A stretch of DNA of 64,000 nucleotides. Origin: Tubulanus polymorphus. Taxonomy: Eukaryota > Animalia > Nemertea. Shown here one piece after another: positions 25,172 to 62,954 of the stretch; position 1 is the stretch's first letter; each line of letters begins with the position of its first letter. The position numbers were made by a program, and so were the translations under genes. The notes beneath the pieces are model-generated. The model did not search any database and had not been told where the DNA came from. It saw only the letters and a program-made list of their open reading frames with translations. The stretch lies in assembly GCF_964204645.1 (NCBI RefSeq), contig NC_134029.1:8582850-8646849 (forward strand). Reading direction: 5' to 3'.

Positions 25172-26432
25172 TTTTTAGCCCACTTGGGACTTTAGTCCCA
25201 GCGGGCTATTGCGTTCACTTTTCGTCAGTCGTTCGTCCGTCTGTTGACGGAATCCAGTTATTTAAGGAAGTTTTGAATACGCTTTGAAGGTAATGTCTTG
25301 ATATTTGGTTTATACATGTATCTACCCGAGACATATCTTCAGCCCAAAAACTGCCCCTCTCAGATTCAAGATGGCCAACTGGCAGCCATTGTTATTTGCC
25401 AAAATCAGCACTTTTAACATATTTTTGAAGTTTTCAAGGGAAATTTTGAAGACGCTTTTATCAATTAATTACCTTGATTGTTCGTATATATTTGTATCTC
25501 CCACGGCCCATCAGCCTGAGAAAAATTGGGTCGATCAGACTCAAGATGGCTGTCCTGTGACCTTATTTTGCCCAAAAATGTCCTGTAGCTTCCTAATGGT
25601 TTGCCATTTTTATTGCAATTTATGATGGTATTCTTTGCATAGGTATAAATGATCAGGCAATTATGATGAAATTGGTGGCCATCGTGGTGTCATGAGTACT
25701 CATTCGTAGGTGGAGAAATGTTTTTCCACTTTATATTGATACTTAAGCATATTTTGTTACCACAATCAATTGGAAAGTTGCAGCGCATGATATGGTCTAT
25801 AATTGTGGTGAGTTTCAAGGTAATTGGTTTTTGTATATGGCCACCAGGGGGCGTTGAACAATACAATAACTTAGTATTTCTATATTATATTTGTACCTAT
25901 GCATATTTTGTTACCACAATCAATTGGAAAGTTGTAGCTCATGATATAGTCTATGATTGTGGTGAGTAGGACATAAGTTATTGTATATGGTCACTAGGGG
26001 GCTGTGAAAAGTAGAATAACTTAGTAGAAATTGGTTTATTAAATTTCATAGAAGTTCTCATTTTCCTTATTATATTGGTACCTAGGCATATTTTGTTACC
26101 ATGATCCATTGCAAAGTTGTAGCTCATGACATGTTCTATGATAATGGTGAGTTTCAAGGTCATTGGCCTTCGCATATGGTCACCAGGGAGCATTGAATAG
26201 TATAATAACTTAGTATTTCCATATAATATCGGTTACTAGGCATATTTTGTAACTACAATTAATTTCAAAGTTGTAGCTGCTGACATGTTCTATGATAATG
26301 CCGAGTTTCAAGGTCATTGGATTTTTTTCAAGGTCATTTGATGGGGGCTAGATAAAAAATAGAAATTGTTAGATTGTTGAGCATTTGAAACCACTCCCCA
26401 AGTGGGCATGGTGTCCCTGGACCGAGTTATAT
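25172..26432 (+). mobile_element. Non-autonomous Helentron/HINE (DINE-1-like) element
   Basis: 5' T-run plus GCCCACTTGGG subterminal repeat, CGTC-type microsatellite, four internal ~150-190 bp repeats (GCATATTTTGTxAC at about 25748, 25901, 26086, 26240), 3' CCCAAGTGGGC plus a short hairpin (GTCC-CT-GGAC). Confidence 0.65.
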
Positions 26433-27690: not shown

Positions 27691-27762
27691 TACAGTCAAC
27701 CCCCAATTACCGCCCTCCCTTATACCGCCACCCCCGCTGATCGCCGCCGGGGGTTGACCGTA
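27691..27762. mobile_element. ~70 bp mini-MITE; also the empty paralogous site of the Polinton insertion
   Basis: TA-CAGTCAACCCC ... GGGGTTGACCG-TA. There is a single TACAGT here, versus two copies flanking the Polinton in the second duplicate. Confidence 0.8.
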
Positions 27763-28938: not shown

Positions 28939-31900
28939 CTATCTTCTAATATTTTGCTTGCGTTTAGCTTTTGCTCGAACCGATTTCATATCGATAGTCA
29001 ATATGGTGTAAAGAAGGGGATTGAGGGACGAGTTGATCGGTAAGAAAAGAACCGCCAGCCAAGCCGCCACTTGATTCGGTATTTTTACCCGTAATACCAC
29101 GCAAATCTGAACGGTTATTATCGGCAGCCAGCAAAATAGATTACAGAGATTTATCACCAAACTCCTGCGTGCCAAAATCAATTCGGTAGGATCAGCTCTT
29201 CCCGAACCAGACCTGCTTCCAGATACGAGTCTATACATTTGCGCATAGGTCGCCATTATCGTAGTCAGTATGACCGAGTTAAACACGGTAAAAATAGCGA
29301 ATGAATATTGCCAGGCATCGACATCAATGGAAATCAAATTCACAGGCAAACAAACTCCCGTAGTACCGTAAAAATTGTTCCCGAAATAAGACGATAGTAC
29401 AAGTGGCACTAATGTAAAAGATCCTATGATTATCCAAATGAGCGAGCAAATAATGGACACATATCTCGGAGATGTAATCGGACTTCCAGAAAATGGATTA
29501 ACGATATTTGAGAATCTATGACGCGTAAGAATGCATAAAAAAGTCAACGAGCCTTCGCAGGATAGGGTCACCGTAACTCCAGCGAAACTACACAATGAGC
29601 TGTGCGTCCAAGTTTCTGAATTTAGGAAATAAACTCCTTTGTGAACGTAATCTGCTCCCGCGATCAAAAACAGATAGATCGACATCATAAAATCACAAAT
29701 CGCGACGTTGATAATAATGATGTCAGAGGATGTGTTTCGATTTTCGGAGGATGAAAGTCGAATTGATCGAAAACGAAATAAGATAACGATGTTATTCAAA
29801 ATGAACGTGAATGCAGAAATAACCCAGATGATAGCTCGGAGGACTGTGTTACCCATCAGATCGGAACAGGTGGAAAATTGATCAGCTTCTGGAAGGCAGT
29901 GATCAACATTCGGAGCCATGCAGCAAAACATGTAAGCATCAGACGTTAAGGAAACTAATGATGTCAGATTGTCGAAAACATTTCTGTCGACAGAAATCGT
30001 TTTCGAATTGTAGGTGATATCAAGGATTCCAAGTTCATTCAACTCAGAAAAAGCGTACATTGAAATATACAAGATTTTGTTACCGCTGATATTCAAAGTC
30101 TGTAATGAGAAGAGACCTTGGAAAACGTATTCAGCTAAAACGAACAGAGAAAGTCCGTGAAGATCGAGTCCTCGAAGCGAACTCAAACCTAAAAAACTGC
30201 CTCCTTCCAAATATCTCAGCGGATTTCCAGTGATGGATAACTCTTTCAAATTATACAAACCGGTGAATGTATTCGCGGATAATGATGTTATGTTATTGTA
30301 TGAAAGGTCTAATGAGTGTAGGTTATGCAGGTTTGAGAACGACTGGGGTACGATATAAGACAATTCATTTGAGGAAATGTCGAGAACGTAGAGATAATAA
30401 AGTATATGAAATGTCGACTGGTTGAAATGAATTTGATTGATAGACAAGATTAAAACACGAACTGATGCCGAGAAGAGGTCAGTAATATCTGTTAAACCGG
30501 TATTTCTGCAATCAATTAAATGACCTTGACATTTACAGCCCCTCGGACACGTGACGCTACAGAAGTCCTCATCATCAGTCGTATATTGACAATTTACGAC
30601 GCCATCGCAAACTTCAGATTGTGGAATACACCGATGTTCCTGGCCACATTTAAACATTCCCGGACATGAAAATATCTTGCAGTTTTGTTCGTCTTCTGAA
30701 TTGGGACAATCTGATTGACCATCGCACACCTGTCTGATTGGTATGCAGTACGATGCTGGGCATTTTACAGTTCCAGCTGGACATTCAAATTCTTCACATC
30801 TCAATACGTGCTCTAGATTTCTACAAACTGGGTAACCATTTGTCATTCTATCTAGAATACATCTGTGACGTCTCGAATAGCAATGAGGAGAATTGAAAGA
30901 ACATCTTTGTTCATCAGATCCCGCACAGAGATTTGTGAAGTTAAGCGAACAGTGGTTCTCATCATTACAATGTATCGTAGGATTCACTGTCACGTCAGTA
31001 GTTGTTACTAATTCGTCTTCTTCAAGGCTTCCACTACAATCCACGACACCATCCTGATAGAACTGAGAACTGATACAGTCTCCACTATTACACAGGAACC
31101 CCTGACACAGTAAAGCGGTGCATTTTGTTTCATCGGAACCATCTTTACAGTTAACTACACCATCACATCTGTTAGACCTATTAACACATTGACCACTGAT
31201 ACAGCGAAATTGCCCGGGCAAACATGGGGGATGGAAACACGAGTTTTCATCTGAACCATCCAGACAATTTTGAATGAAATCACACAAACCACTGATTGAT
31301 ATCACATGACCTTCATAGCATTGAAAATGACTGTGTAAATTTATATCTGAACAATTGAGTTCATCTTCGCCGTGTTGACAGTCGTCTCTCGTATCACATA
31401 CGCGATGGTCGCTGATACATCTTTCATCGTTACATTTAAACTGCCACGATTTACAACCGCTTATAGAAGCTAACTCTTCATCGGTGACATTATATGAACA
31501 CAAAACAGAATGCGCTGTATCTGTAGCATTATCAAACTCTTTCGTCATCCATTTAATTGATTGAATATGAGTAATATCATCTCTATTCATTACTGGGATT
31601 ATAACAAGCAGTCTGTCATTAGAAGTCATCATTAGTATAGAGCTATACTGATGTTGAATGTGAAATGTTCTTATCAAGTTCATTGTAACGTTTTCTGTGT
31701 GAGAGGTTATGGCAGTGCCTATTTCACCACGGATACCATGACACATCTTTGTCGCAGATTTCGTATCTAAACCTCGATGATTGTTCCAGTCTGTCAGGAT
31801 TTGATAGCATTGTCGATTTATGCTTACCCAACCAATCGTACAGCTCGAGTCATTGAAAACATTATCGAGAAATGTATTTTCACGAAGCAAAAATGTGTTG

Positions 31901-34900
31901 TTATTTGTTGAATTCGATGTTTCAACTGCTGTGTTTCCAATTGCATTCTTCCAATTCACTATGTCGATTATTTCTGTTTCACAAATGAAACTCGTGTGAA
32001 CCTCTTCAATTCCGCAAGGGAATCGAACCCAGTTCGCTGATCCTCGGGGATTATTTAGTATCATCGCTGTACATGGCATATTGATGTCTTTTATCGGTTG
32101 TTTTCTTAAAGGAGATATCAATCCTTGAATAACCTCTGGTATCGTATCGTTATTTGTAGGTTTATACCACTCTGTGTAGCTCAATGGTTTCCCATCAGTC
32201 CACGTGTAATAACCAGATCTAGGCTAGAAATATAAAATAATAGCAAATTAACGTTGGGAACATTTAAAAAAAGAAAAACTGTTTACAAATTTACCTGGAG
32301 TTTTAATCCAATCATTACAATGAGCGCTTTCTGCGAATATGCTTGTTTAAGAAGCTTTGTAGCGAATAATGTTTTAATGGAAACCATTTCCTGTTCTGAG
32401 TTGATACTGAGTAGATGTCCCGCATGCTTTTGTCTACAGTACAATTCAGCATTCTCCCAATTCAGACGCTCATCTCTGATATTTTTCACGCAGGAAATTC
32501 CCGAATCTAAAAATCCTTGTTGACAGTGAGCACCATTATTTGAATACTCCATCGCAAACGAATGGCGCAAAACGTATTGTATCTGAAATGTTGCTATTAT
32601 GTCTTTGATTTCGAAATAAAACTGATTACTAATTAAACTATGAAATACAAGTCCTATCGTTGCCATATTCCCACATATTGCAATACGACGATGGGTTCGA
32701 ATGTTCGCCCAGGATATCTCTTGAATGAAAAGTATCGGGCTTGTTTCCACAAAGATGTTTGCGGTGCAGCTTATCGATTCTATAGATTTGATGATAAATC
32801 TGTAATATCGAAATATGTTCCTTTGTCGGGCGTTTGTAAATCTATAGTATAAAGATACCGACGTACGTCCTGCCCATGTCGGGTAGTTCGGCGATTCGAC
32901 CAGTCCGCATTCGTCGTCCAACGAGTAAGCTTGTCTCCCTATTGTTGACCGTAACGTGTCAACAGGCTTTTTCGGTCCTAAACATTTATGACGCAGTTTG
33001 ATAGTGAGTGGTGTCCACCGAAACGCACTCCAACTGCCCATGAATACCGTGCTTAAAACGATGCTTTCATTTAAAAGTTTACTAATCAATCTTAATCTTC
33101 GAGGACAAAGTCGTAACAAATCACGAAAACAACTGTCAATTCGATATTCGTGTCCTGATAATATATGAATTTTTCTGGGAGGAAGGCGTCGGTTTTCGGG
33201 TGTTATCACGAGACAGTGTGACGTCATAACGATCTGACGTTCTACCTGCTTTACATCATACCAGTCACAGTCAGTAGAGCGAAATTCGAGAGTTGGTTTC
33301 TCATCGACTGTTGACGACAGAACATCCCAGTTATAAGCGTATCCTACTACAGTAACATATCCACCGGATGTAATCAGACTGACGACGTTACGGTCGTATA
33401 CCCGTAAACGAGGGCAATACGGACCGTAGCGTCTAGCCGTGAAATTACCACCATCAAATATGTAAAATCCAGCCCGCTCACAGTTCTCTGATAAAACTGT
33501 CAGGTCCATATTCTCATCATGAATATCAACTTTCCATTTGAACAGTAATGTGTTTATTTGGTAGATCAATTCTTTCTTCTTTGATGACGGGAAAATCCAG
33601 CGAAAAGGAAGCCATGATATTCCATCTCGCATCTATGAAAATAATGTCTATGGATCAGTTTATATTATTGGAATATGATTTGATTAGTCAGCTTCATTGG
33701 TAGTTTAGAATTTAATACTCACCCGATGATTAGTGACGTGTACATCTTCTATCGTTAGTGATTTCAATTCAAAGTTAATTTCTATTCGTGACATTGATTG
33801 TTCCCCATTCATTAAGACGCACACTACGGCGAGAAAGCCGTCAGATTTGACACTCAGTGATTCTAGGTTGTTGCAACCGAGTAAAATATCAGCCCTTACA
33901 AAACGCAGCCCTTCTAGTTTATATACACCAATGACGTCACCGGACGTGACGAGATCACGTGTCCAGTTGAAGACGACGTACTGTAACACCTGCACTGCGA
34001 TAGACCAACAGTGTAAGTGGTTTGATCGAGTTATTACGTGTAAACTGTTTTCATCGGGAATGAGCACCCCCGACTCGTTATTAGAGATCTGAATCAACGG
34101 ATTAGAGACGTTCCAATCTGATATTTTGTAGATTTCTGCTAATAGTCTGAAGCGAATTAACGGATTCCAATGAAGCGAAGAGATGACTGCTTTATTTGTT
34201 TTAGTATAGAACGACGAAGGTGGATGTCCGGTTTGTTCTCGTATAATTGCTATAGGTTCACTGTTGGTGTTCCACCCGTCGTAGATTTTAATGGTCACTG
34301 ACTGACTTGCAGGATGTGGTTTTAATATTACCCGAATAAATGTGAGATTCATCGCATGACCGTGTGATATTCCGATCCATTCCACAAACAACTGGCACTT
34401 ACGTATTTTGATGTGGAATTTATACCCAGTTGATGATTGTAGTTTATTTAAACTACAACTTATTTCGTTGCAGTCGTGACTGATTCTGAATCGGCTTCGT
34501 TCATAACGATATATCATATACACCCGACTACCTCGCGCACTATCGACGTAACTCCTAAATATCAACGAGATCGAATCGTTACGGCCGATCTCATGTTTTC
34601 CATCACCGCAGAGTCTGTTATCAGGCTCGTAAACGAGAAGGTAGTCACCATTACAGAATATTGACGGCTCGATGTCGTAGTAAACGTGGACGTGAATAGT
34701 TCCCGGTAAAGAGCTGTTGATGAACCAGCGACATTCAACACCACGCGTTAACGAGGGATAATTCGGTGAAACGATGTAACCGGACGTAGAATCGACGGGG
34801 TACCACGTGTTGTTGCAAGGTGAACTTACCATCACAGACGATTCCTTGATAGAGTCTGTGCGATCGGCGCGTGCTATGCGAACTTGACAGACGATCAGCG

Positions 34901-34934
34901 ACGCTATCAAAAGCGCTCCCAGTTGTTGCTCCAT
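28939..34934 (-). CDS. GRL101-like LGR-family GPCR with CUB, C-type lectin, LDLa and LRR ectodomain, copy 1 (~1,940 aa, 3 exons)
   Basis: Exons 34934-33723, 33632-32295 and 32223-28939 joined by phase-0 GT-AG introns of 90 and 71 nt. Signal peptide, CUB (GYIVSPNYP), CTL (LNWENAELYC...WTDG), multiple LDLa (CDGxxxCxDGSDE), LRRs, hinge STCSDLM, 7TM with TGVCLP and NSSLNPLLY. Confidence 0.9.
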
Positions 34935-37607
34935 AGCAAACAACACGATACAATGAATGAAATTCCTTCACGATTCAAATTCTGCCCCGTTGTCCACGGA
35001 TCTTCAAGTCCAATCAATTAATGATGTAGAATTCTAAATTTCTTACTTACTAAATGAATTATTCACTCTATTTCGCAAGAATATTCAATTTCAGTCGTAA
35101 ATATTGACGCACGGCCAATTATATTTTTAACATGCTTAAATCAATTTTCGTGTCGTTCGCGTTTTTTTTTTGTCTGGATGATAATCTTTTACACAATACT
35201 TTATCATTTTCGCTGGTGTACTGCGCATATATATAGAACACGTCATTCCGTCTAGCACCACCAATTTCATAAAGCCCGCAAATGCGGAATTTGATAGAAA
35301 AGTCCCTAGCCGTGAAGGAAAAGATCAGAGTTGTTGATTAAATCGAGGAATGACCTGAATTGGAATTATTGTGGGATCAACAGGGTTAATTCAGCTATTA
35401 GTAACGTTACCTCTCGGTTTGCTGATCTCCTTTTATGTTACCAGTTGCCGACATCATAGTTCCCGCTTAAGTTTGACTCTGGCAATTATTGAGTCGAGAA
35501 ATCCGTTCATTTTCGATATGTCCGTGTAACACCTTGTGAAATCTTTACCAAGAACGTTTAAACCATATCCTAGTTTGTTTTTATTGTAAAGTCCACTTTC
35601 GGTTATTTTCAACTTCTGGAGGAACTAATAAACCTCGTGTATAGTTTTGTGTATATTAAGTGTTTCGTCTTTCATCTGGGGTTGACGCGTTTTTTACCAC
35701 TATTTGATTCATGAAAAATGAATGAACTGTAACATTTAACCAATGAAATTCCTCGGATCCACTCGGAATTTTGAGTTTCATGCTTAACATGAACAAATCG
35801 GGAAAACTCAGGGAATTTGTCAATTTTGTAGAAAGTGGCCACCCTGATTAAAAGAAATTCAAAATTAGGAAGAAAATACGGCTCGACTCATCCGTGAATG
35901 AAAGTTGAAACTACAATGGCGTTTGTACGATTGTTCTCGAGGGAATACCTGGTGGCGACACCGTTAATCGGGACGAAAATTCCTTAGATAGCAAATACTT
36001 GGGGAATGTCCAGAAAATAACTCCTGAGTCTCGTAAACCTTAGATAGTTACAGAGTATGGCGTGACACAAATTCGCATATCACTTTTTACAAAACGCCCC
36101 CCTTCCCCCACCCCTGGTGGCACCACCAAAAAGTTGATAAAAAACTGTTAGAATACAGAGAAAATATGACTCAAATAAAAATTGACGCCGGACGGACGGC
36201 TCACCCCATACCCTACCTCACCTTTGGTCACAGCGGAGCTAGAAAAAAGCGATAGACGATGGAATACTTGGAAAATCTGTACCGACCTCAAATAAAGTTC
36301 TATATAGTGTGCCCATGTCACACTTGCAATTAAAAGAAAAAGACACATTCAAGGTTTTCGCTCCTTTGTTGCGAGCAAGCTGCGGAACCGGTGGCTGATA
36401 AGGATCATAGCGAAAATTTCTGGTATGCAAATCAGGGCTCCAGAACGCAAGAACGCCAAAACGAAAAAAACGTCAAATTTTCTCTGAAAGTTCGTTTTTG
36501 TGCGCCAAAACAAAGAATAATTCCGTTTACGCGCTCCCGCTAAAACGAACTTTCAACCACGTAAAATAATTCTATATATGAAAATTCATGCAAATTATAC
36601 ACAGGATCAACGCGCCAAATTGAAAAATAATTTTACTGTGGTTGAATCCTTTTTTGGCGGGGCGCCAAAATGGATTTAACCGCGCCAAAACGAAATCCTC
36701 TTTGTTTTGGCGCGCCTATTATACTGACCACCCCTCCCCCATCCGTACTACGGTACATTTTGAAAGACCCTTCGGCCTACGAATTGGCCATTAAAATTGT
36801 TGAGCTACCTTTAATTGAAAAACGCTCCGAGATATGCTCATTTCAGTCTACCGCTGGTTTACCGACCACATCGGTGCAGAACGATTTTGGCGGTATAAAT
36901 CGACGAGTATGGCGGTATATCGGGGCTTGTCAAATGATTACTCCAAGATCGGGGTGGTTTACTATGTATTTGTATTAGAGATGAACATTGAGAAAACCTG
37001 GCGGTAGGCGGGGGTGGTGGCAAATGGGAGGGCGGTTTATCGGGGTAGACTGTATATAAAATCAAGTAAGTAGCATATTTAGAGGGGGTGATATTACTAT
37101 AATATGATATTTTGCATCAGAATATCGCGAAATTTTTTATATCTGGTCCACAAAGTATGAACATTTTCTGAAGAGACTTGCTATCAGAAAAGTACGTACA
37201 TTCTTCTTAGAGACATGCTGGCAATGATATCAAGATCAATGGTGTGTTGAGTTATACGGTCACTGTTGCTGTTTGAAGTGCGAGTATTTGCAGACATAGT
37301 TTTTCTCGATGCTCGTTCGCGTCTCGACGTCAAAATCAATCGAATGGCTACAAGAATCACTGTCGGGATTATACTTTATAGGACTAACAAACTCTACTAT
37401 TTCAACTGTTCTTTTTTTTTACCTAATAAAAGTCCAAGTCCGTGTCCATCATTCGTGTCCAGTGCACTGATTAATGGAACAACGAGTAAAATATTTGTAT
37501 TGAATAATCGACATTGTCAGTAAACATTTATGTAGATATAACTTTTCTTCGTACGAATAATTCTAACAGCTTACAGATGCCAAAAAACAACATTAAAGCT
37601 GTACAGT

Positions 37608-38020
37608 AGTAATAGGAAAAGTAGGCTTTCATACCAGAGGACGAGAGGACGAGACACCACTCATCACCACAAGTAATTTTTTTTCCTAATAAATGGGGGA
37701 GAATGAACACCAGCCAGAAAACAATAATGTTAATAAAAATCAATATTATTGCACATGTTGTAAAAAATACGTTGATACATCTAATAAAACACGACATGAA
37801 AAAACTGCAAATCATATAAAAAATGTAATAGATTTTGAAACTCCAGAAAATTCCAATGAAAGAAAAGAAAGATTAGAAAATATGAATGTGGATGAAATAA
37901 AATGTGAAGTTTGTAATGAATTTATAGTAAAAAGGAATTATAATAGACATCTCGAATCACAAAAACACCATCAAAATTTGAGTAATAATGTTTTAGGAAA
38001 AGATTATTTTGATGATAAAC
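37608..38020 (+). repeat. Left terminal inverted repeat (413 bp)
   Basis: Reverse complement of 54367-54779. Similarity ends after GATGATAAAC. Confidence 0.93.
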
Positions 38021-41000
38021 CTCAAAAAGTAAAAAAACCAAATTCAAAAACTTAATCCATTTCAAATAAACCTTACATGGAAAATGTTAGAAATTATATT
38101 GATTCACTAGAAATAAAAGATACAATTGAAATTTTAGAAACATTACATAGTAAAATTGGTCCTGCAGCTATTATATTTAGATTTTTTAAAGGTACAACAA
38201 TAGAAGATTATAGTAAATTAAATGAAATAATAGAAAAAATACTAGATTTGATAACAGATGTTGAATATCCAAAAATTAGTATCTCTGGGAAAGTAAGTTT
38301 TATAAAGTCAGAAGAAAAAATGAATTATAATATTCAAACACTCTCTGAAGAAATAATTTCAAAAACACAAATAAAGAGAAGTTAGAAAAAATATTTAATG
38401 AATTTAAACGTCATATTGAAGAAAGATATTTTGAGGGTTCTGGCTTAACATTGAATGAAATTATATATTTAGATTTAAATGTTTATAATACAAAAAGAAA
38501 TAAAACATCAAAAAGTAATAAAATGTTCAAAATGAAGATAATAAATGTTTTCTATGGTCAATTATTAGTTGTTTACACCCAACAGAAGATATGACGCATA
38601 GTTTTAGAATAACAAATTACCGGAAATATGAAACATTATATAAAATTGATCAATATCCAGTAACTATAAAAATGATTCCTAAAATAGAAAAAGTTAATAA
38701 TTTAAAAATAAATGTATTCGAATTAATGCAATTACCAAAGACAAAAGGTGAAAATATTAAAGATTATACATTGGAAGCTTTATATTTAACAGAATATTAT
38801 GATGATGAAAATGCTATAGATTTGTTATATTACAAAAAAGATGAAAATGAACATTATATGTGGTTAAAACAAATTGATTTATTCTTTAGAACAGAAAGTG
38901 ATCACCATAATAAAATTTATCTATGTAGAAAATGTTTATCTAAATTTATGACTGAGAATACATTATTAAAACATAAAGAATTATGTGATAATAAAGATTT
39001 TTGCAAATTAATAATGCCAACAGAAAAAGATTATAAATTGAAATTTACTAATCATAAATTTAAAAATATTGTTCCATTTGTAATTTATGGGGATTTTGAA
39101 TCGTTGAATAAAGAATTAACTGATCAAGATAGAAAAGAAATATATAACAAAAAGCAATTATTAAAATCAATGGATAAAGGAAATGAATTAAATGAAGACA
39201 CAACACAAGATCCGCCAATTATAAATACAATTAAAAAAGTTCATCAAAGAGCTGCTGCTTATAGAATTTATATAAAATCAAATTATCCCGGTTTATATGA
39301 AAGTCAATATATTTCTTTTAGAGGTGAAGATGTAGTTAATGATTTTTGTAACAAAATGATTGAATTAGAAAGTGATTTTGCAAAATTATCAAACAAAAAT
39401 AAAAGAATATTTATGACAAAAGAAAATGAAATTGATTTTAATTATGCAACTCATTGTTGTTATTGTGAAAAACCTTTTTATTCATTTGATAAAAAAGTTA
39501 GAGATCATGATCATTTAAATTCAAAATATCGTGGAGCTGCTCATGAAGATTGCAATTTACAAGCTAAGAAAGTTAATTTCGTACCAATATTATTTCATAA
39601 TTTATCAGGCTATGATACCCATCTATTTATAAAACAATTATCAAAGAAATTTGGCACAATTAATCAAGAAATAGAAGAATATAATGCTATGAATGGTGTA
39701 AATGTAAGAAAATATGATTTTAAACTATTAGCTAAAACATCTGAAAATTATATTTCATTTCAATTTGGTTGCATTAGATTTTTAGATTCTTATAGATTTC
39801 TAGCAAGTTCATTAGATAATTTATCAAAAAGTTTAGTTGATAATGATTTTGTTATAACTCGATATTATTATCCAAATGACCAAGATTTTAAATTATTGAG
39901 ATATAAAGGTGCAATTCCTTATTCATTTTATAAAACACACAATGATTTTAATGTAACAGAATTATTAAAAGATCAATTTTATGATCAATTAAAAGAGGAG
40001 TATGTGAAAGACGAAGTGTTTAATAGAACATTAAATATTTGGAACCATTTAAGGATGAAAAATCATGGTGAATTAGTTGATTTATATTTAAAATCAGATG
40101 TTATGATATTGGCTGACATATTTGAAAAATTTAGAGAAGTCAATTTGAATCATTTTAATGTTGATCCTTGTTATTGCTACTCTAGTCCTGGTTTAACCTG
40201 GCAATGTGGTTTAAAATATACAAATGTAGAATTAGATTTATTAAAAGAACCAGATATGGTTTTATTATTTGAAAAATCAATTAGAGGTGGAATTAGTGGT
40301 GTTATGGGAGATAGGTATTTTAAAGCAAATGATGAATATAAATTATTATATATTGACGCCAATAATTTATATGGTTGGGCAATGATGCAGCCTCAACCAT
40401 ACAAAAATTTTATATTAACAGAAGTTGAAAATGATGATAAAACTAATTGGGAAAGCGCAACTATGAGTTTAGAAGATGAAGCACCAATTGGTTATTTCTT
40501 TGTAGTTGATTTAGAATATCCTGAAAATATAAAGTTTAAAACAAGAAACTTACCTTATTGCCCAGAACATTTAACTGAAGATGATAGTAATTTAAGTGAA
40601 TACCAGAAGAAAATAAAACCGAAAGATCATGTTTTTACAGAAAAATTAATACTTACTCAAAATAATAAATACAATTATATTGTTCATTATAGAATGTTAA
40701 AATTTTATCTAAAACAAGGAATGAAATTAAAGAAAGTACATAGATATATTGAATTTAATCAATCGAAGTGGTTAGAAAAATATATAGATTTTAATACTCA
40801 ACAGAGAACCATATCAAAAACAGATTTTGAAAAAGATTTCTTCAAATTAATGAATAATAGTTTTTATGGAAAAACATGTGAAAATATTAGAAATAGAAAT
40901 GATATTGAATTAGTAAATAATTCTGAACGATTAAGACATTTACAATCAAGTCCTAAACATTTAGGAAATAAAAGATTTGAAGATTATTTAGCAGCAGTTA

Positions 41001-42670
41001 AATTAAAAAGAACGTCAATGAAATTTAATAAACCTATATTTATTGGTTCAACAGTTTTAGAAGTATCAAAACTATTAATGTATGATTTTTATTATAATGT
41101 TTTACAACCACTTTTTGGGGAAAAGCATATTGAAATATTATATTTTGATTCTGTAACAGCTGACACCCCAATATTATTAAAATGTAATAATAAAATATTG
41201 GTAAGAAGAATTTCAGAAATAATTCCAAAACAAAATTAATGTTATATTTCATATGGTGAAAAAGAATTAATACAAATAAATGGATTAATGGATGTTTGGA
41301 CAAGAAATGGATGGAAAAAATTAAAGAATATTATTAGGCATAAAACAAATAAGAAAATCTATAGAGTTAGAACTAAATTAGGGTTTGTAGATGTTACAGA
41401 AGATCATAGTTTAATTAAACGAAATGGCGATGAAATAAAACCAACTGATATAAAAATTGGAGATGAATTATTACATAAAAGATTTTTCCAAAGAATGAAT
41501 CATATGTCATTTGATGAAATAATTGATAATATTTATAACATAGAACCCGAAACATTAGAAAGAAAAGAATATTTTATCAAAGGATTTTTCATGGGTGATG
41601 GTTCAGCAGGTGTGTATAATTATGTTAATCGCACTCAATATTGCTGGTATTTATGCAATCAAGACTTAAAATTATTAGAAAGAATAAAGAAATTCTGTGA
41701 AGAAGTTTATCCAAATAAAACATTTAAAATCATGGATGTTATGAAATCAACAGCAGTTTATAGAATACTTGTAAATAATCCTAAAGATTTTGCTATAAAA
41801 TATAATGATGAATTCTATATTCATGCAATAGTTAAAAGTAATACTTCAACAAAAGATAAGATAGTACCAGATTATTTATTAAATGCAAAAAATAATTTAA
41901 GAAAATGGTTCTTCATTGGATTCTATGCTGCAGATGGTTCAAAAAGTTTCAAAAACCGCAAAACAATATCTTTAGCTCAAAAAGGAAAAGTTGCTATATC
42001 AGGATTGAATATATTATGCAGTTCATTAGGATTTAATATGAATATTGGATTGATTAAATCTAAACCAAATTGCTTTAATTTAAGACATGTAGAAAATGAG
42101 TTAACAGAAGAAGTTAAAGATTTATTTGAAATATATAACCCAACTGACTATGTTTATGATTTATCAACAGATGATGGAACATTCAATTCTGGGTTCCCAT
42201 TAATCCAAAAAAATACCGACGCCTACATACTAAAAATCAAGACAAATGACATAACAAAAGACTTAAAAACATTAAAACATCATTTTGATTTTAGCACTTA
42301 TCCCAAAGATCATGAACTATTTAGCAATGATAATAAACAGATTCCTGGTAAATTTAAAGATGAATTAGGGGGTGATGAAATGATTGAATTTGTTGGGATA
42401 AGAAGTAAAATGTATAGTTACAGAACAAAAGATCATGAAGCTAAAAAGTTAAAAGGAATAACAAAACATGTGGTTGATAAACATATAGAATTTCAAGATT
42501 ATATAAAGTGTTTATATAAATCAATTGTAATGAAACACAAAATGAATTGTTTAAGATCAGAAGATCACGAGATGTACATTAATGAAGTTAAAAAAACTAG
42601 TTTGAATCCATTTGATGATAAAAGGCATATTTTAGATGATGGTATAAAAACATTACCTTATGGCCATTAA
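37693..42670 (+). pseudogene. polB: Protein-primed family B DNA polymerase (zinc fingers, vOTU-like protease, EndoVII/HNH insert, exonuclease, polymerase) containing an intein; disrupted
   Basis: EGSG, NEDNKCFLWS...EHY, IYGDFES, CCYC...RDHDH...HEDCN, FHNLSGYD, YIDANNLYGWAM, KLMNNSFYGK, YFD|TD, GKFKDE, SKMY, DDKR. In-frame stops at 38053 and 41237, frameshifts at about 38380-38520. Confidence 0.93.
41150..42214 (+). mobile_element. Intein with dual-motif LAGLIDADG homing endonuclease in PolB (355 codons, one in-frame TAA)
   Basis: Block A SVTADTPIL directly after YFD, block B VDVTEDHSL (TxxH), LAGLIDADG-like YFIKGFFMGDG and WFFIGFYAADG, block F YVYDLST, block G ending QKN followed by Thr. Removing it restores YFDTD. 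Confidence 0.93.
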
Positions 42671-49128: not shown

Positions 49129-50376
49129 ATGAGTGGGAGTTATATAAGTCCTTCTAAGATTTCTAGAATATCTAATGCTATTAAAGCAGAAAGATCACAT
49201 CATATAATTACTCATAATCCTTCAAATATTAATCCCGATGAAACTTTATATGTTAGAATTCCTCGATTAACACAAAATACTTTTTATGTTCCAAATAGTA
49301 TTTATTTATCAGCTGATATAAAAGTAATTGGTCATGATAATAATTATGTTGTTGATAATGTTGGGAGATATTTGATTAAAAAATTAACTATAAAGATTGG
49401 TCCAGAAACAGTTTTCTCATTAGATGATTATAATTTATTTATGCATTATAAAGATTTATGGTTAACTAAAGAAAATAGAAATAATATAATATTTCAGGGT
49501 ATTCAATCGGAAAACCATAATAAATTAAGATCTGAAGCCAATAATGCAGTAGTAACTAATGCTGTAGATAATCTGATTAAAAAGATTTATGGAAGCAAAT
49601 ATAAAATTCCATTAGACTTTGAATTGATAAATAATAATGCACCTTTATATAAATATGTAATTCAAGAAGGTATTATATTTGAGATAACATTTGCTCCTGT
49701 AAATGAAATTGTATTATCTAGCGTTGTTAAAGATATGGGTTATAAATTATCAAATATATGTTTAGAATATGACACAGTAACTAATGAAAATATTGCTAGC
49801 ACAATTCAAACTCAATACAATCAAGGATTTTCATTATTATATGATTATATTGATAAATTTAAAACTGTAACTATCAATGCAAATGATGAAATAATTAATG
49901 AGAATATTAACTTCCCAAGAAGATCTATTAAAGGTATATTAATATTTTTTACCATTGCAACATATTCTAATGGCGCAATAAAGGTTGATAATTATTATAA
50001 TCCTGAAATAACAAAAGTAGAAATAACTATCGAAGGAATAGCAAATAAAATATTTTGTCAAGGAATGAGAATGATTGATCAATGGCCAGAAATTAGAAAA
50101 CATTTTATGAATGAAAAAGTAAAATCATTTGAAAATTGTAATATTAATCAAATTGATTATTATACCGGCAATAAATACGCACTATGGTTAGATTTTAGAA
50201 CAACAGAGGATAATTCATTACATGGTTCTGGGAAAAAACTACAGAACACAAAAAATGGAATACAATTATTCATGAAAAAGAAAAAAGGAAGCTTAAATTT
50301 TAAAATGCACATATATATTATATCTGACGCACAATTAAATATTGTAAATTTACAATTAGGTAGTATTCAATATTAG
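49129..50376 (+). CDS. Putative major capsid protein (double jelly-roll)
   Basis: Intact 415 aa, beta-strand rich (NPSNINPDETLYVRIP, LSNICLEYD, NINFPRRSIKGILIFF, ALWLDFRT). Lies next to the integrase and ATPase genes. Confidence 0.75.
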   Translation: MSGSYISPSKISRISNAIKAERSHHIITHNPSNINPDETLYVRIPRLTQNTFYVPNSIYLSADIKVIGHDNNYVVDNVGRYLIKKLTIKIGPETVFSLDDYNLFMHYKDLWLTKENRNNIIFQGIQSENHNKLRSEANNAVVTNAVDNLIKKIYGSKYKIPLDFELINNNAPLYKYVIQEGIIFEITFAPVNEIVLSSVVKDMGYKLSNICLEYDTVTNENIASTIQTQYNQGFSLLYDYIDKFKTVTINANDEIINENINFPRRSIKGILIFFTIATYSNGAIKVDNYYNPEITKVEITIEGIANKIFCQGMRMIDQWPEIRKHFMNEKVKSFENCNINQIDYYTGNKYALWLDFRTTEDNSLHGSGKKLQNTKNGIQLFMKKKKGSLNFKMHIYIISDAQLNIVNLQLGSIQY

Positions 50377-50406: not shown

Positions 50407-51534
50407 ATGGGCGGTAAAAAAACTCCTAATACTAAAGAACAATATCTAATAAATTTATATTACAACCCTGAGAGTTCGGTTGCTTATTCTTCTACCAAAA
50501 ATATATGGCGTCAAGTAAAACAAGATAAATTAGATAAGATAATCCCACAAAATTTAGTTAAATATAAAGATATAAATGAATTTATGTTAGAACAACCAAC
50601 ATACGCAACACATAAAAAAATTGTTAGAAAATATAAAACTCGTAAAACTATGGTAAGTTATGTAGATCAACAGTGGCAAGGAGATTTAATTGATATGAAA
50701 AATGTTAAGAAAGATAATGATGATTATTGGTGGTTATTGAATATAATTGAAATTTTTAGTCGTTATGTATGGAGCTTCCCACTTTATAGAAAAGATGCTG
50801 TACAAACATCAAATGTTTTAAGAAAATTTCTTTCGGATGATAAACTAAAACCAGAAAAAATACAATTTGATGATGGAAAAGAGTTTGATAATTCACTTGT
50901 TCATGAACTCTTAGATAATCATAATATTGAATATTTTTCAACAAAATCGGATAAAAAAGCAGCAGTTGTTGAACGATTTAATAGAACATTAAGAACAAGA
51001 ATGTGGAAATATTTTACAGCAAATAATACTTTTAAATCGATTGATGTTTTACCAAAATTGATAGAAGGATATAATAATTCTTATCATTCTTCTATTGGAA
51101 TGAAACCTATTGATGCTAGAAAACCTGAAAATGCTGAAATTGTTTGGAATAATTTATATGGAGCATTTCTTGTAGATGATTTTGGTGAACCTAAATTTAA
51201 AGTTGGTCAAAATGTTAGAATTTCTAAGTATAAAAAGATATTTGATAAAGGATACGATCGAAATTTTACTAGAGAAATATATAAAATAAAAAAGGTAATA
51301 ACAACAAAACCATATGTCTATAAATTAGAAGATTTAGATGGTGAAGAAGTTGATGGCTACTTTTATGAAGAAGAATTAAGTTTAACTACTGAAAATCTAG
51401 AACAAGAATATAAAATTGAAAAAGTATTAAAGACAAAAACTATTAAAAGAAAAAAATATTCTTTAGTAAAATGGGTTGGATGGCCAGATAAATTCAATGA
51501 ATGGATATTATCAAGTAAAATTAAAAATATATAA
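50407..51534 (+). CDS. Retroviral-like (rve) integrase with C-terminal chromodomain
   Basis: DDE triad WQGDLID / QFDDGKEF / VVERFNRT. Chromodomain EYKIEKVL...LVKWVGWPDKFNEWI. Consistent with the 6-bp TSD. Confidence 0.95.
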   Translation: MGGKKTPNTKEQYLINLYYNPESSVAYSSTKNIWRQVKQDKLDKIIPQNLVKYKDINEFMLEQPTYATHKKIVRKYKTRKTMVSYVDQQWQGDLIDMKNVKKDNDDYWWLLNIIEIFSRYVWSFPLYRKDAVQTSNVLRKFLSDDKLKPEKIQFDDGKEFDNSLVHELLDNHNIEYFSTKSDKKAAVVERFNRTLRTRMWKYFTANNTFKSIDVLPKLIEGYNNSYHSSIGMKPIDARKPENAEIVWNNLYGAFLVDDFGEPKFKVGQNVRISKYKKIFDKGYDRNFTREIYKIKKVITTKPYVYKLEDLDGEEVDGYFYEEELSLTTENLEQEYKIEKVLKTKTIKRKKYSLVKWVGWPDKFNEWILSSKIKNI

Positions 51535-52143
51535 ATGAATAAGGAATTATTTATATTTGAGCCTCATAATATGTTAATTTCTGGTGTAACAAATTGTGGA
51601 AAAACTTATTTTATATTAAATTTATTAGAAACTGTTTATGAAAACTATTTTGATAATATAGTATTATTTTGTCCAACATATGAATTTAATCAACCTTATG
51701 ATAGAAATATTACTAGAAATAATAAATTTATTATATTAGATCCTAAAACAGTAAAAGAAAATTTAGATAATTGTATTAAAATAGCAATAGATATTTATAA
51801 AGGATCAAATACATTATTCATTATAGATGATTGTGCTTATCTACATGATTCAAAAGTTAGAGAGAGTGAGTTATGCTATTTAGCTTTTTCTGGCAGACAT
51901 TTTGGGATAACAACTTGGGTTTTAAATCAAAAATATAATTCAATTGTTAAAGACTTTAGAGAAAACATTAGATTTCTAGTTTTATTCTACAATAAAGATA
52001 GAAAATCGATGAAAAATGCACTTGAGGAAAATGATATTATTCCACATGATTTACATAATGAATATATGGATAAGTTGAAAAATATTAAAAGATCAAAATT
52101 ACTATTTAGATTACAACACCCATTTAAATATGAATTTATTTAA
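51535..52143 (+). CDS. A32/FtsK-like genome packaging ATPase
   Basis: Walker A GVTNCGKT, Walker B LFIIDD, SGRH motif, LNQ. Confidence 0.9.
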   Translation: MNKELFIFEPHNMLISGVTNCGKTYFILNLLETVYENYFDNIVLFCPTYEFNQPYDRNITRNNKFIILDPKTVKENLDNCIKIAIDIYKGSNTLFIIDDCAYLHDSKVRESELCYLAFSGRHFGITTWVLNQKYNSIVKDFRENIRFLVLFYNKDRKSMKNALEENDIIPHDLHNEYMDKLKNIKRSKLLFRLQHPFKYEFI

Positions 52144-54211: not shown

Positions 54212-54694
54212 TCAACAATCACATAACACTTTTTCATTAGGTTCATATTTAGGTGTAACAATTTCATTATCTAAGTTACATTGAACTGCAACATCTTTAT
54301 ATGATTTTTCATTAACTAATCCACATTGAATACCAATATTTGATGAATTTTCATTATAGATAATTTGTTTATCATCGAAATAATCTATTCCTAAAACATT
54401 ATTACTTAAATTTTGATAGTGTTTTTGTGATTCGAGATGTCTTTTATAATTCCTTTTTGTTTTAAATTTATCACAAACTTCACATTTTATTTCATCCACA
54501 TTCATATTTTCTAATCTTTCTTTTCTTTCATTGGAATTTTCTGGAGTTTCAAAATCTATTACATTTTTTATATGATTTGCAGTTTTTTCGTGTCGTGTTT
54601 TATGAGATGTATCGATGTATTTTTTACAATATGTGCAATGATATTGATTTTTATTAACATTATTATTTTCTGGCTGGTGTTCATTCTCCCCCAT
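54212..54694 (-). CDS. Zinc-finger protein starting inside the right TIR
   Basis: First ~109 aa are nearly identical to the PolB N-terminus (two CxxC...H...H fingers). The unique C-terminus is homologous to ORF 62955-63608. Confidence 0.65.
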   Translation of the reverse strand: MGENEHQPENNNVNKNQYHCTYCKKYIDTSHKTRHEKTANHIKNVIDFETPENSNERKERLENMNVDEIKCEVCDKFKTKRNYKRHLESQKHYQNLSNNVLGIDYFDDKQIIYNENSSNIGIQCGLVNEKSYKDVAVQCNLDNEIVTPKYEPNEKVLCDC

Positions 54695-54779
54695 TTATTA
54701 GGAAAAAAAATTACTTGTGGTGATGAGTGGTGTCTCGTCCTCTCGTCCTCTGGTATGAAAGCCTACTTTTCCTATTACT
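54367..54779 (-). repeat. Right terminal inverted repeat (413 bp)
   Basis: Reverse complement of 37608-38020, followed by TSD TACAGT. Confidence 0.93.
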
Positions 54780-56132
54780 TACAGTCAACCCCCAATTACC
54801 GCCCTCCCTTATACCGCCACCCCCGCTGATCGCCGCCGGGGGTTGACCGTATATGCGTAGCTATCGACAATGTTATCAAATCACTGATAATTGGAAGTCT
54901 AATGTTCTTGGCGTACAAGCGCTTACAGCGTGGTATATTTCAGCAGTTACGTCCTGTGATAGTGTGTGACTGTGCAGCCAAAGCTGTAAGTCAAATGCGA
55001 TCTATGACACACACAGATAAACATGTCCGCAACAGGCAAACGTGAGAAAATGAATATGCCGGTGTTGTTTGAACATTTGATAATAATACATATAAAATAC
55101 AGTGAATTTATGCCGAAACCGAAGATCGTAATGCTGAAAATGACGTAGTGATATATGAATGATCAGATTTACGTGAAACGGTTTGTAATCAGCATGAGGG
55201 ATTTTGTTACAGATTTCATAAGATTATCATTTATTACATTTTAATGGATTGATTCAAGGAAAAAAAAATTGTTCAGTAGTCCTTTAAATGATGTTTTGAC
55301 GAGCATCTTAGGTAGAATTGACGGGTCATTTTTATGTTCAGTTTTGACGGGTAAAATTGTAAGATTGAGGGTAAATTTGATATTTCATTTTGACAGTACA
55401 TTTATAGCTATGCCATTATATTTGGCTTAACCAAAATCCAGGACAAACAGACTGGCTCCCCATTATCAGTTCATCCAAACTTGGGGTAGCAAAATATGGG
55501 AAAAGAAAAAATTTTAAAACTATTCAGATTGATTGGGTAACACTTTAAACTGAAGATCACGTATCTTACTGTATGAGCTGCCAATTAATCACGACGAATA
55601 CGAACGGAACTCCGCAAAAACGATCAAGCTTATTGTTTAAAAAAAGAACGTTTTAATCTTGCATGAAACGAACGATTTTGCGAGAAATGTAACTAAGGCG
55701 ATCCAGGTATATTAGCAATCCATATCCACAACACTTAGAATCTTGAAAAAGTATATAGCGCACCAATTCTAGAAACGTCCAGATATCACGTTAAATTGCT
55801 AAACCGTGAAAAGAAGCCAACGTATAAAACTAGGCAAGTATACTTGGTTAACTATATTTTTAGATAAAAAGTGAAGTATCGATTTTTAAGCCTGTATTAT
55901 TTTGAAGATTTTCTGCATTATATTTTCATGTATGAATTTTTCAGACAATTTCTTAGTCAGGAGAATAAAGTTATAACTTGATAATAGGATAGGACTAAGG
56001 ACTACGATTCGGACAACCAATTTTTTGCTCCCGAGAAACAGAATCATGAATGCAGAAAACCCGTTATCGCTGCAGTGCAGCTATATTAGGGGTTGTTGCT
56101 CGATCATCTCTCCTTCCCCTGCAGCATGTTAT

Positions 56133-59100
56133 CTATCTTCTAATATTTTGCTTGCGTTTAGCTTTTGCTCGAACCGATTTCATATCGATAGTCATTATGG
56201 TGTAAAGAAGGGGATTGAGGGACGAGTTGATCGGTAAGAAAAGGACCGCCAGCCAAGCCGCCACTTGATTCGGTATTTCTACCCGTAATACCACGCAAAT
56301 CTGAACAGTTATTATCGGCAGCCAGCAAAATAGATTACACAGATTTATCACCAAACTCCTGCGTGCCAAAATCAATTCGGTAGGATCAGCTCTTCCCGAA
56401 CCAGACCTGCTTCCAGATACGAGTCTATACATTTGCGCATAGGTCGCCATTATCGTAGTCAGTATGACCGAGTTGAACACGGTAAAAATAGCGAATGAAT
56501 ATTGCCAGGCATCGACATCAATGGAAATCAAATTCACAGGCAAACAAACTCCCGTAGTACCGTAAAAATTGTTCCCGAAATAAGACGATAGTACAAGTGG
56601 CACTAATGAAAAAGATCCTATGATTATCCAATTGAGCGTGCAAATAATGGACACATATCTCGGAGATGTAATCGTGCTTCCAGAAAATGGATTAACGATA
56701 TTTGAGAATCTATGACGCGTAAGAATGCATAAAAAGGTCAACGAGCCTTCGCATGATAGAGTCACCGTAACTCCAGCGAAACTACACAATGAGCTGTGCG
56801 TCCAAGTTTCTGAATTTAGGAAATAAACTCCTTTGTGAACGTAATCTGCTCCCGCGATCAAAAACAGATAAATCGACATCAGAAAATCACAAATCGCGAC
56901 GTTGATAATAATGATGTCAGAGGATGTGTTTCGATTTTCGGAGGATGAAAGTCGAATTGATCGAAAACGAAATAAGATAACGATGTTATTCAAAATGAAC
57001 GTGAATGCAGAAATAACCCAGATGATAGCTCGGAGGACTGGGTTACCCATCAGATCGGAACAGGTGGAAAATTGATCAGCTTCTGGAAGGCAGAGATCAA
57101 CATTCGGAGCCATGCAGCAAAACTTGTAAGCATCAGACGTTAAGGAAACTAATGATGTCAGATTGTCGAAAACATTTCTGTCGACAGAAATTATTTTCGA
57201 ATTGTAGGTGATATCAAGGAGTTCAAGTTCATTCAACTCAGAAAAAGCGTACATTGAAATATACAAGATTTTGTTACCGCTGATATTCAATGACTGTAAT
57301 GAGAAGAGACCTTGGAAAACGTATTCAGCTAAAACGAACAGAGAAAGTCCGTGAAGATCGAGTCCTCGAAGCGAACTCAAACCTAAAAAACTGCCTTCTT
57401 CCAAATATCTCAGCGGATTTCCAGTTATGGATAACTCTTTCAAATTATACAAACCGGCGAATGTATTCGCGGATAATGATGTTATGTTATTGTATGAAAG
57501 GTCTAATGAGTGTAGGTTATGCAGATTTGAGAACGACTGGGGTAAGATATAAGACAATTCATTTGAGGAAATGTCGAGAACGTAGAGATAATAAAGTATA
57601 TGAAATGTCGACTGGTTGAAATGAATTTGATTGATAGACAAGATTAAAACACGAACTGATGCCGAGAAAAGGTGAGTAATATCTGCTAAACAAGTATTTC
57701 TGCAATCAATCAAATGACCTTGACATTTACAGCCCCTAGGACACGTGACGCTACAGAAGTCCTCATCATCAGTCGTATATTGACAATTTACGACACCATC
57801 GCAAACTTCAGATTGTGGAATACATCGATTTTCCTGGCCACATTTAAACATTCCCGGACATGAAAATATCTTGCAGTTTTGTTCATCTTCTGAATTGGGA
57901 CAATCTGATTGACCATCGCACACCTGTCTGATTGGTATGCAGTACGATGCTGGGCATTTTATAGTTCCAGCTGGACATTCAAATTCTTCACATCTCAATA
58001 CGTGCTCGAGATTTCTACAAACTGGGTAACCATTTGTCATTCTATCTAGAATACATCTGTGACGTCTCGAATAGCAATGAGGAGAATTGAAAGAACATCT
58101 TTGTTCATCAGATCCCGCACAGAGATTTGTGAAGTTAAGCGAACAGTGATTCTCATCATTACAATGTATCGTAGGATTCACTGTCACGTCAGTAGTTGTT
58201 ACTAATTCGTCTTCTTCAAGACTTCCACTACAATCCACGACACCATCCTGATAGAACTGAGAACCGATACAGTCTCCACTATTACACAGGAACCCCTGAC
58301 ACAGTAAAGCGGTGCATTTTGTTTCATCGGAACCATCTTTACAGTTAACTACACCATCACATCTGTTAGACCTATTAACACATTGACCACTGATACAGCG
58401 AAATTGCCCGGGCAAACATGGGGGATGGAAACACGAGTTTTCATCTGAACCATCCAGACAATTTTGAATGAAATCACACAAACCACTGATTGATATCACC
58501 TGACCTTCATAGCATTGAAAATGACTGTGTACATTTATATCTGTACAATTGAGTTCATCTTCGCCGTGTTGACAGTCGTCTCTCGTATCACATACGCGAT
58601 GGTCGCTGATACATCTTTGATCGTTACATTTAAACTGCCACGATTTACAACCGCTTATAGAAGCTAACTCTTCATCGGTGACATTATATGAACACAAAAC
58701 AGAATGCGCTGTATCTGTAGCATTATCAAACTCTTTCGTCATCCATTTAATTGATTGAATATGAGTAATATCATCTCTATTCATTACTGGGATTATAACA
58801 AGCAGTCTGTCATTAGAAGTCATCATAAGTATAGAGCTATACTGATGTTGAATATGAAATGTTCTTATCAAGTTCATTGTAACGTTTTCTGTGTGAGAGG
58901 TTATGACAGTGCCTATTTCACCACGGATACCATGACACATCTCTGTCGCGGATTTCATATCTAAACCTCGATGATTGTTCCAGTCTGTCAGTATTTGATA
59001 GCATTGTCGATTTATGCTTACCCAACCAATCGTACAGCTCGAGTCATTGAAAACATTATCGAGAAATGTATTTTCACGAAGCAAAAATGTGTTGTTGTTT

Positions 59101-62100: not shown

Positions 62101-62131
62101 CTATCAAAAGCGCTCCCAGTTGTTGCTCCAT
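56133..62131 (-). CDS. GRL101-like CUB/CTL/LDLa/LRR GPCR, copy 2
   Basis: Same three-exon structure as copy 1 with all ORFs open (413, 450 and 1081 aa tracks). Scattered substitutions and one extra codon. Confidence 0.9.
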
Positions 62132-62954
62132 AGCAAACAACACGATACAATGAATGAAATTCCTTCACGATTCAAATTCTGCCCGGTTGTCCACGGATCT
62201 TCAAGTCCAATCAATTAATGATGTAGAATTCTAAATTTCTTACTTACGAAATGAATTATTCACTCTATTTCGCAAGAATATTCAATTTCAGTCGTAAATA
62301 TTGACGCGCGCCCAATTATAATTTTGATATGCCTAAATTAATTTTCGTATCGTTCACGTTTTTTGTCTGGATGATAATCTTTTACACGATACTTTATCAT
62401 TTTCGCTGATGTACGGCGCATATATAGAACACGTCATTCCGTCTAGCACCACCAATTTCATAATGCCCGCAAATGCGGAATTTGATAGAAAAGTCCCTAG
62501 CCGTGAAGGAAAAGATCAGAGCTGTTGATTAGATCGAGGAAAGTAATAGGGGTAATGGGCTTTCTGATCAATGGTCGAAGGGTCGAGCTCGTAAAAAAAT
62601 GAAAATAACAATAATTTACAGTTGAATTAGTCGCGCACACTCCTAATTCAACTGGAAATGAACATAATTTACATGAATTTCATATATTTTAAAATCATTT
62701 ATACGTTAATTACAAAAGTGTGAGTAAAGTGTGAGTAATAATTCATATTTAACAGATTTCGAGTAAAAATATAAGTAAAATAAATGGATAACTAAAAGAG
62801 TATAAAAGTGTGAGTAAAGTGTGAGTGAAATAGTTTATATTTTAAACATATTTCAATATTCATATTTGTATGAGTTCGATTTTTAAACATTAAAAGTGTC
62901 AGTAAAGTGTGATTGAAATAATTCATATTTAAAACATTGAATATTTATATTTGA

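Follow-up and report, generated by a model that had tools for sequence, protein, structure and literature searches.

A homing-endonuclease intein in catalytic motif C of the DNA polymerase of a Polinton integrated in an animal chromosome

Introduction

The closest described systems are the inteins of giant-virus and archaeal family B DNA polymerases (PolBs), among them that of the Mimivirus PolB, which occupies the pol-c site and interrupts the sequence YGD/TDS (PMC549080; here and below the slash marks the insertion point). Homing between very distant PolBs was thought implausible by Ogata et al. (PMC549080). Fourteen inteins have been counted in invertebrate iridoviruses (PMC5784728), and reviews describe animal genomes as being without inteins. 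For the HNH and VSR inserts of protein-primed PolBs (pPolBs), derivation from intein invasions has only been suggested (PMC11161782). The class 1 splicing scheme, as laid out in PMC4031507, uses Ser or Cys at position 1, a terminal Asn, and Ser, Thr or Cys at position +1 as nucleophiles, and the NX motif was needed in the Ser1 inteins tested in PMC10189870.

Here we analyse a stretch of 64,000 nucleotides from the nemertean Tubulanus polymorphus (contig NC_134029.1, positions 8,582,850 to 8,646,849; hereafter the window), in which an intein had been predicted from the sequence alone inside the DNA polymerase of an integrated Polinton.

Results and Discussion

The Polinton and its integration

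The intein is carried by an element of 17,172 bp whose 413-nt terminal inverted repeats are 96% identical and which is flanked by a 6-bp target-site duplication. The features of the element and of its empty paralogous site, in window coordinates, are as follows:

27691-27696, no strand: lone TACAGT at an element-free paralogous site, in a tandemly duplicated host segment
37602-37607, no strand: 6-bp target-site duplication TACAGT, left
37608-38020, no strand: left terminal inverted repeat, starting AGTAAT
37693-38385, plus strand: likely N-terminal pieces of the polymerase polyprotein (zinc-finger repeats)
38522-41149, plus strand: N-extein, protein-primed family B DNA polymerase (PF03175, E 1.5e-19), ending at the YFD of motif C
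41150-42214, plus strand: intein of class 1 type (Ser1 ... Lys-Asn, Thr+1) with LAGLIDADG endonuclease, 355 codons
42215-42670, plus strand: C-extein of the polymerase, starting with the TD of motif C
49129-50376, plus strand: likely double jelly-roll major capsid protein (weak Capsid_N match, E 0.014)
50407-51534, plus strand: retroviral-like integrase with chromodomain (rve E 3e-9, Chromo E 8e-4)
51535-52143, plus strand: A32-like packaging ATPase (Pox_A32, E 8e-13)
54367-54779, no strand: right terminal inverted repeat, 413 nt
54780-54785, no strand: 6-bp target-site duplication TACAGT, right

The Polinton/Maverick family is characterised by inverted repeats at the ends and a target duplication of 6 bp. 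Together with the pPolB, the rve integrase and the A32 packaging ATPase they bear out the earlier assignment of the host element to the Polintons. The Atlas look-alikes of the likely capsid protein lie at 0.97-0.98, with Capsid_N or double jelly-roll-like matches on a minority of the members of some of them, and its recognition score is low; no Pfam match to a minor capsid protein (penton) or a maturation protease was obtained in the scanned element ORFs of at least 100 codons.

Because a lone TACAGT stands at the empty paralogous site, the integration is shown directly. The GC content of the element (0.21-0.27) is lower than that of host DNA (0.33-0.46), and the flanking frames encode LDLa-LRR-7TM receptor, CUB and C-type lectin domains (Pfam), an architecture which we take to be animal-type. 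What carries the intein in the animal chromosome is an integrated viral gene and not one of the host. The target duplication, the empty paralogue and reads from a second study that contain both host and element DNA rule out a contaminant or an artefact of the assembly.

Several further observations concern the element and its surroundings. A T-rich motif ending in TAAATG lies directly on 10 element start codons (37693, 44837, 45194, 45440, 45882, 46333, 47658, 49129 and 52448 on the plus strand, 54694 on the minus strand), a pattern set after the data had been seen; about one is expected from shuffles (maximum 4 in 200 shuffles), and one occurs in 37.6 kb of host DNA. The motif resembles the late promoter of poxviruses and may reflect the use of a helper virus for transcription; the literature search returned no Polinton title on a TAAATG-type promoter. 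A second low-GC block (62900-64000), which shares 122 nt (91%) with the right end of the element (54260-54381) and ends in a 24-nt tandem repeat, is likely the edge of another Polinton. The host gene is tandemly duplicated at ~98% identity (28939-34967 and 56133-62164, minus strand); its three very long open frames encode CUB, C-type lectin, LDLa, LRR and 7TM domains, and the reads, tens to hundreds deep here, suggest that the family is much larger. Between 15248 and 20248 lie three arrays of 80-95-nt units, several running from a TATGATG-like start to CTGA, which resemble box C/D snoRNA clusters; Rfam gave no match anywhere in the window, these arrays included. Lastly, a very high-copy short repeat with many internal deletions occupies 25172-26423, at a depth of ~3,000-3,500 compared with ~11 for unique DNA.

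Sequence, domains and predicted fold of the intein

The insert measures exactly 1,065 nt (355 codons), in the frame of the long polymerase gene, and lies between the Asp and Thr of catalytic motif C (YFD/TD). It reads ILYFD/SVTADTP ... VDVTEDHS ... FIKGFFMGDG ... FFIGFYAADG ... YVYDLST ... GFPLIQKN/TDAY and is divided as follows:

41150-41485, plus strand: N-terminal Hint part, with Ser1, NX-motif Arg-His64 (41339-41341) and block B Thr83/His86 (41396-41407)
41237-41239, plus strand: in-frame stop at intein codon 30, which breaks the window copy and was treated as X in the analyses
41552-42094, plus strand: two-motif LAGLIDADG homing endonuclease, with Asp150 (41597-41599) and Asp262 (41933-41935) kept
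42095-42214, plus strand: C-terminal Hint part, with block F Asp337 and terminal Lys354-Asn355; blocks F and G lack His

When the N- and C-terminal flanks were searched separately, they met with a gap of 0 residues in the intein-free polymerases P0361-P0364, which read YFD/TDS and are 66-80% (N flank) and 73-82% (C flank) identical to the window polymerase. The contiguity of the flanks on which the prediction depended was therefore found, and the site is the pol-c site that had been named, lying at the Asp/Thr junction of motif C and having as kin the inteins of the equivalent site. Upstream, the likely N-terminal pieces of the polymerase are broken near 38053 and 38372 in the window copy, where most reads differ. 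A weak Endonuclease_7 (HNH) match (E 0.012) was also seen in the exonuclease region of the polymerase (39428-39562), and many relatives of this polymerase carry PF02945; an HNH-like insert has been said to be unique to the pPolB2 of oomycetes and terrestrial nematodes (PMC10748475).

The terminal residues of class 1 inteins are present (Ser1, Asn355 and Thr+1), as are the assisting residues Thr83 and His86 of block B, Asp337 of block F and Arg-His64 of the NX motif, which sits 22 residues ahead of the block B His. The penultimate His, which is usual and assists splicing without being obligatory, is replaced by Lys354, and Lys237 of the endonuclease part is nearly invariant. Of the two profile matches proposed as a check, the LAGLIDADG one held, LAGLIDADG_3 scoring above its Pfam cut-off (E 5e-7; 30.2 bits, cut-off 22.5); the Intein_splicing match fell below its own (E 3e-6; 27.5 bits, cut-off 35.8), and it is structure prediction that points to the Hint fold. 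An AlphaFold model of the read-through with X, built on a 71-row alignment (mean pLDDT 95.6, pTM 0.93), has a beta-rich Hint domain around a helical endonuclease. Its best Foldseek matches in the PDB are inteins with homing endonucleases (7qsu, E 3e-17; 2cw7, E 5e-17), the solved structures ranking in the order TliVMA, PI-PkoII, PhoVMA, PI-PfuI and PI-SceI inteins, then I-DmoI (rmsd ~3); the best named matches in the viral library are PolBs of a phycodnavirus, a Pandoravirus, a Marseillevirus and a Megavirus. By its motifs, the LAGLIDADG_3 match, the predicted fold and the gap-free exteins, the insert is confirmed as an intein composed of Hint and two-motif LAGLIDADG endonuclease, as had been claimed. 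A spliceosomal intron was ruled out, the insert being an open frame with intein motifs, and a Hedgehog-type or BIL Hint domain was likewise rejected, given its place inside a conserved enzyme with an endonuclease and a +1 nucleophile.

The intein family in Polinton-type polymerases

Searches with the intein matched 290 longer proteins (best 120 listed), 48 of similar length and 2,091 representatives (best 150 listed). Among the matches listed, the best full-length ones are Polinton-type polymerases with an intein at the same site, whose inteins are 62% (P0003), 48% (P0004), 46% (P0005), 47% (P0006), 45% (P0008), 40% (P0011) and 39% (P0012) identical to that of the window, and one Polinton-polymerase intein fragment reaches 74%. 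At least 25 protein clusters (90% identity) carry the intein at this site, with the polymerase flank confirmed in each (20 clusters, P0006 recognised by Pfam, and 4 more; many are fragments, maybe from few hosts). The idea of a one-off jump into this genome was thereby refuted. Some of the intein-bearing relatives are on contigs of up to 1 Mb. Among the matches listed for the closest other polymerases, 109 of 119 are empty, 4 filled and 6 unclear, in a count whose length window excluded most full-length filled proteins.

The intein profile matched 353 proteins, from which 303 inteins could be cut out. All but one of these begin with Ser (302/303), 240 interrupt YGD/TD, 135 end in His-Asn and 102 in Lys-Asn. 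The original prediction was thus right about the penultimate Lys; as a special feature of this intein it was ruled out, being common in the family. The three residues preceding the site vary widely among pPolBs (YFD, YMD, YSD, YLD, ASD, SSD and YGD). The endonuclease part is conserved to about the same degree as the splicing part (41-58% and 38-70%), and the equivalents of both Asp150 and Asp262 are kept in all 10 pPolB inteins checked.

The family also occurs in type II topoisomerases (DQD/TD and EGD/SA sites), at a second PolB site (SAN/SM) and in a PF03747 protein (GGD/TD), P0007, P0094, P0103 and P0034 being among all these carriers, and it has thus changed host protein several times, often at D/TD. 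A separate observation is that Cys stands for Thr in motif C of 38 of the 109 empty polymerases among the matches listed (35 YMDCDS, 3 YTDCDS; P0378-P0479). These fall in a lineage that has filled alleles too, and the variants are possibly an escape from the endonuclease.

Copies in the same species

Copy estimates were obtained from ~12% of the raw reads of run X6, which bears the same species label and possibly represents another individual. The stop at 41237 is absent from 185 of 215 reads; the window copy is a pseudogene, and most sister copies are without the codon-30 stop. Relative to the two lowest host bins (depth ~11.5), the N-extein stood at ~26 times and the 5' intein at ~19 times that value, a rough measure on a two-bin baseline, uncorrected for AT bias and heterozygosity, which suggests ~26 element copies in the genome, ~80% of them with the intein. 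The ratio of intein to extein depth was 0.81 over the 5' two-thirds of the intein and ~0.5 over its 3' third, the drop lying at 41940-42280. Seven reads pass from one extein to the other, skip a net length of exactly 1,065 nt and represent precisely empty alleles; they form two classes (5 and 2 reads), both unlike the window copy in the first three codons past the site. From these seven reads and the depth ratio, the empty share ranges from a few percent to ~19%. Both intein-plus and intein-minus copies, for which a search had been proposed, are therefore present in the reads of the species.

Likely homing and a part for vertical descent

The explanation that in our judgement accounts best for these data, and which we hold with good confidence, is a homing-endonuclease intein in motif C of an animal-integrated Polinton polymerase, predicted to splice and likely spreading by cutting intein-free copies. 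Under this explanation, and judging from the distribution of the intein, the endonuclease would cut the motif-C codons of empty copies, which would then be converted with a filled copy as the repair template, sometimes together with a short flanking tract.

Filled and empty alleles coexist at 97-99% identity. The P0004 cluster (136 members, 15 of them listed) includes 7 filled and 6 empty copies among those 15; these copies are 94-98% identical to P0004, and what separates the two kinds at the site is a stretch of exactly 346 residues. Each of the 10 fixed differences between them falls in the interval from -7 to +44 around the site, identity being 98-99% up to residue 1000, 89% just before the site and 78% just after it. 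The first 13 residues past the site in the filled copies match a sister family, as would be expected under co-conversion, or else from escape changes in the empty copies. In the P0008 cluster, filled P0140 and empty P0143 have identical flanks and a gap of 339. On a 44-row N-extein tree, whose rows were hand-chosen with a bias towards filled alleles, 9 changes are required to explain the 12 filled rows, and well-supported branches force no fewer than 7 of these; filled rows are no more clustered than in shuffles (61 of 500 as low), and the four rows nearest the window polymerase are empty. The exteins of P0006 are only 18-21% identical to other pPolBs, the same as to giant-virus PolB, and its intein is 42-48% identical, which suggests that the intein crossed into a polymerase group only ~20% identical. 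The patchy tree, the filled/empty pairs, the retained Asp residues and the distant P0006 host support the likely homing that had been predicted.

An alternative, which we regard as unlikely, is that the intein still splices, entered an ancestral Polinton polymerase once, was inherited vertically and was lost precisely many times, homing having ended. Intein and extein identities are indeed alike for several pairs (62% and 57% between the window and P0003; 65% and 66-70% between P0004 and P0005), the pPolB inteins form a single clade (see below), and the fall in read depth within the 3' part of the endonuclease, seen in this species, points the same way. The similar identities fit vertical descent with losses, which also plays a part. 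As the whole history, however, this alternative must accommodate an intein in a polymerase as distant as that of P0006, both catalytic Asp residues kept in every pPolB intein checked, filled/empty differences that peak at the site, and, with 109 of the 119 closest other polymerases empty among the matches listed, very many exact losses. Homing with an active endonuclease is the reading that we retain.

Predicted splicing and the His-free C-terminus

The insert splits the D-T-D motif, so that splicing is obligatory for a working polymerase, and uninterrupted copies are predicted to splice the intein out and restore the enzyme. By analogy with class 1 oxyester splicing, Ser1 would undergo an N-O shift helped by the NX His64 and block B Thr83/His86, the N-extein would be passed from Ser1 to Thr+1, and Asn355 would cyclise with Asp337, without the usual histidines of blocks F and G. 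A His in the NX stretch was found in all 283 relatives with readable block B. Among 295 distinct inteins, which are not phylogenetically independent, the block F His is present in 128 of 133 ending in His-Asn and absent from 73 of 100 ending in Lys-Asn; in view of the latter count, the His-free C-terminus reads as a family variant and not as decay, and as a splicing variant it is of interest.

It is very improbable, in our estimation, that the intein is instead decaying and non-splicing, its filled copies being passengers copied by intact empty helper elements. The stop codon in the window copy, the lack of His in blocks F and G and the presence of empty alleles in the species would suit such decay, but lineages that are 40-60% identical retain every other catalytic residue, and the relatives that share the His-free end are mostly viral PolBs, which must be functional. 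In the species, moreover, filled copies outnumber empty ones, and one cluster contains seven filled members whose frames are open. A splicing intein in the uninterrupted copies thus continues to be our reading.

Origin of the intein

Intein phylogenies comprised a 123-row FastTree and a 52-row IQ-TREE quick tree, with rows picked by similarity, and left out near-duplicates, inteins outside 300-430 residues and archaeal pol-c inteins. The pPolB inteins form one clade (FastTree 0.998; SH-aLRT 100, 11 rows), nested in the Lys-Asn group of YGD/TD PolB inteins, mostly of giant viruses. This phylogeny, which the original prediction had called for, places the pPolB clade inside the PolB inteins and lends support to the proposed origin from a large DNA virus. 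The sister row of the clade is P0016 (support 92), a PolB with a Pol-delta-type zinc finger. Among the matches listed, giant-virus MAGs rank first of the viral contigs, at 35-42% identity, 181 of the 192 readable sites at alignment-scan loci read YGD/S, and no pPolB-like extein was found at the at least 205 viral or metagenome loci of these scans; single-protein scans yielded no relative on contigs of either kind.

These trees suggest a jump from a giant-virus-type, primer-dependent PolB at the equivalent pol-c site, probably once, followed by spread among Polintons with repeated gain and loss; since the intein belongs to a clade common to at least 25 clusters, the jump would be old. A recent direct jump from a giant virus into the Polinton of this animal, which giant-virus PolB inteins at the same site might suggest as the next-nearest relatives, is the least probable reading, given their identity of only 35-44% compared with 62% (full length) and 74% (fragment) for Polinton inteins, a base composition matching that of the element (GC 0.25 for the intein, 0.23-0.27 for the element) and the clade of pPolB inteins.

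A bolder version of the old jump and subsequent homing, to which we give even chances, is that working homing inteins are present in animal genomes, taken once from a giant-virus-type polymerase, driving through dozens of copies and jumping between distant Polinton lineages, with empty copies escaping by codon change. If true, this would be a natural gene-drive arms race inside the animal germ line.

Comparison with known systems

The full-text literature search, which covered the main text of freely accessible papers, found no description of an intein in a Polinton, and the word intein is absent from the main text of PMC8502044 and PMC10748475. The intein allele itself is known; the protein and the genome that host it are each of a new kind. 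A multi-copy, endonuclease-bearing intein in animal chromosomes qualifies the rule that these are free of inteins, by way of an integrated viral gene. The intein further provides physical evidence of a past meeting, within one cell, of Polintons and a polymerase of the giant-virus type, a point relevant to whether the Polintons of animals have a viral way of life. Furthermore, with filled and empty alleles so nearly identical, sequence data alone suffice to measure homing, co-conversion and resistance.

In its carrier, the locus resembles the described Polintons and adintoviruses (PMC8502044), being a 17-kb element with inverted repeats, pPolB, rve, A32 and a likely capsid gene. The nuclease inserts published for pPolBs are bare HNH or VSR domains (PMC10748475, PMC11161782), whereas here a complete splicing domain sits at the catalytic motif. 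Inteins also occur in viral-like DNA polymerase genes integrated in the nuclear genomes of Klebsormidium, Tetrabaena and Hondaea, where they lie on nuclear scaffolds; these and the inteins of Anaeramoeba (PMC10710043) likewise point to viruses as the vector. Those hosts are algae and protists, however, while here an animal is the host and the Polinton that carries the intein is present in many copies, some filled and some empty. The inteins of invertebrate iridoviruses (PMC5784728) are also found in a DNA virus of animals, but their carriers are large Nucleocytoviricota, not pPolB elements, and are not reported there as chromosomal copies.

The giant-virus and archaeal pol-c inteins (PMC549080, PMC5784728) share with the window intein the motif C site, Thr+1 and the combination of Hint and LAGLIDADG domains, at 35-44% identity. 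Their hosts read YGD/TDS where the window polymerase reads YFD/TD, and unlike theirs the host here is a protein-primed polymerase, ~20% identical to those PolBs, in a small integrating element of an animal chromosome. In contrast to the expectation of PMC549080, one intein clade here spans polymerases only ~20% identical.
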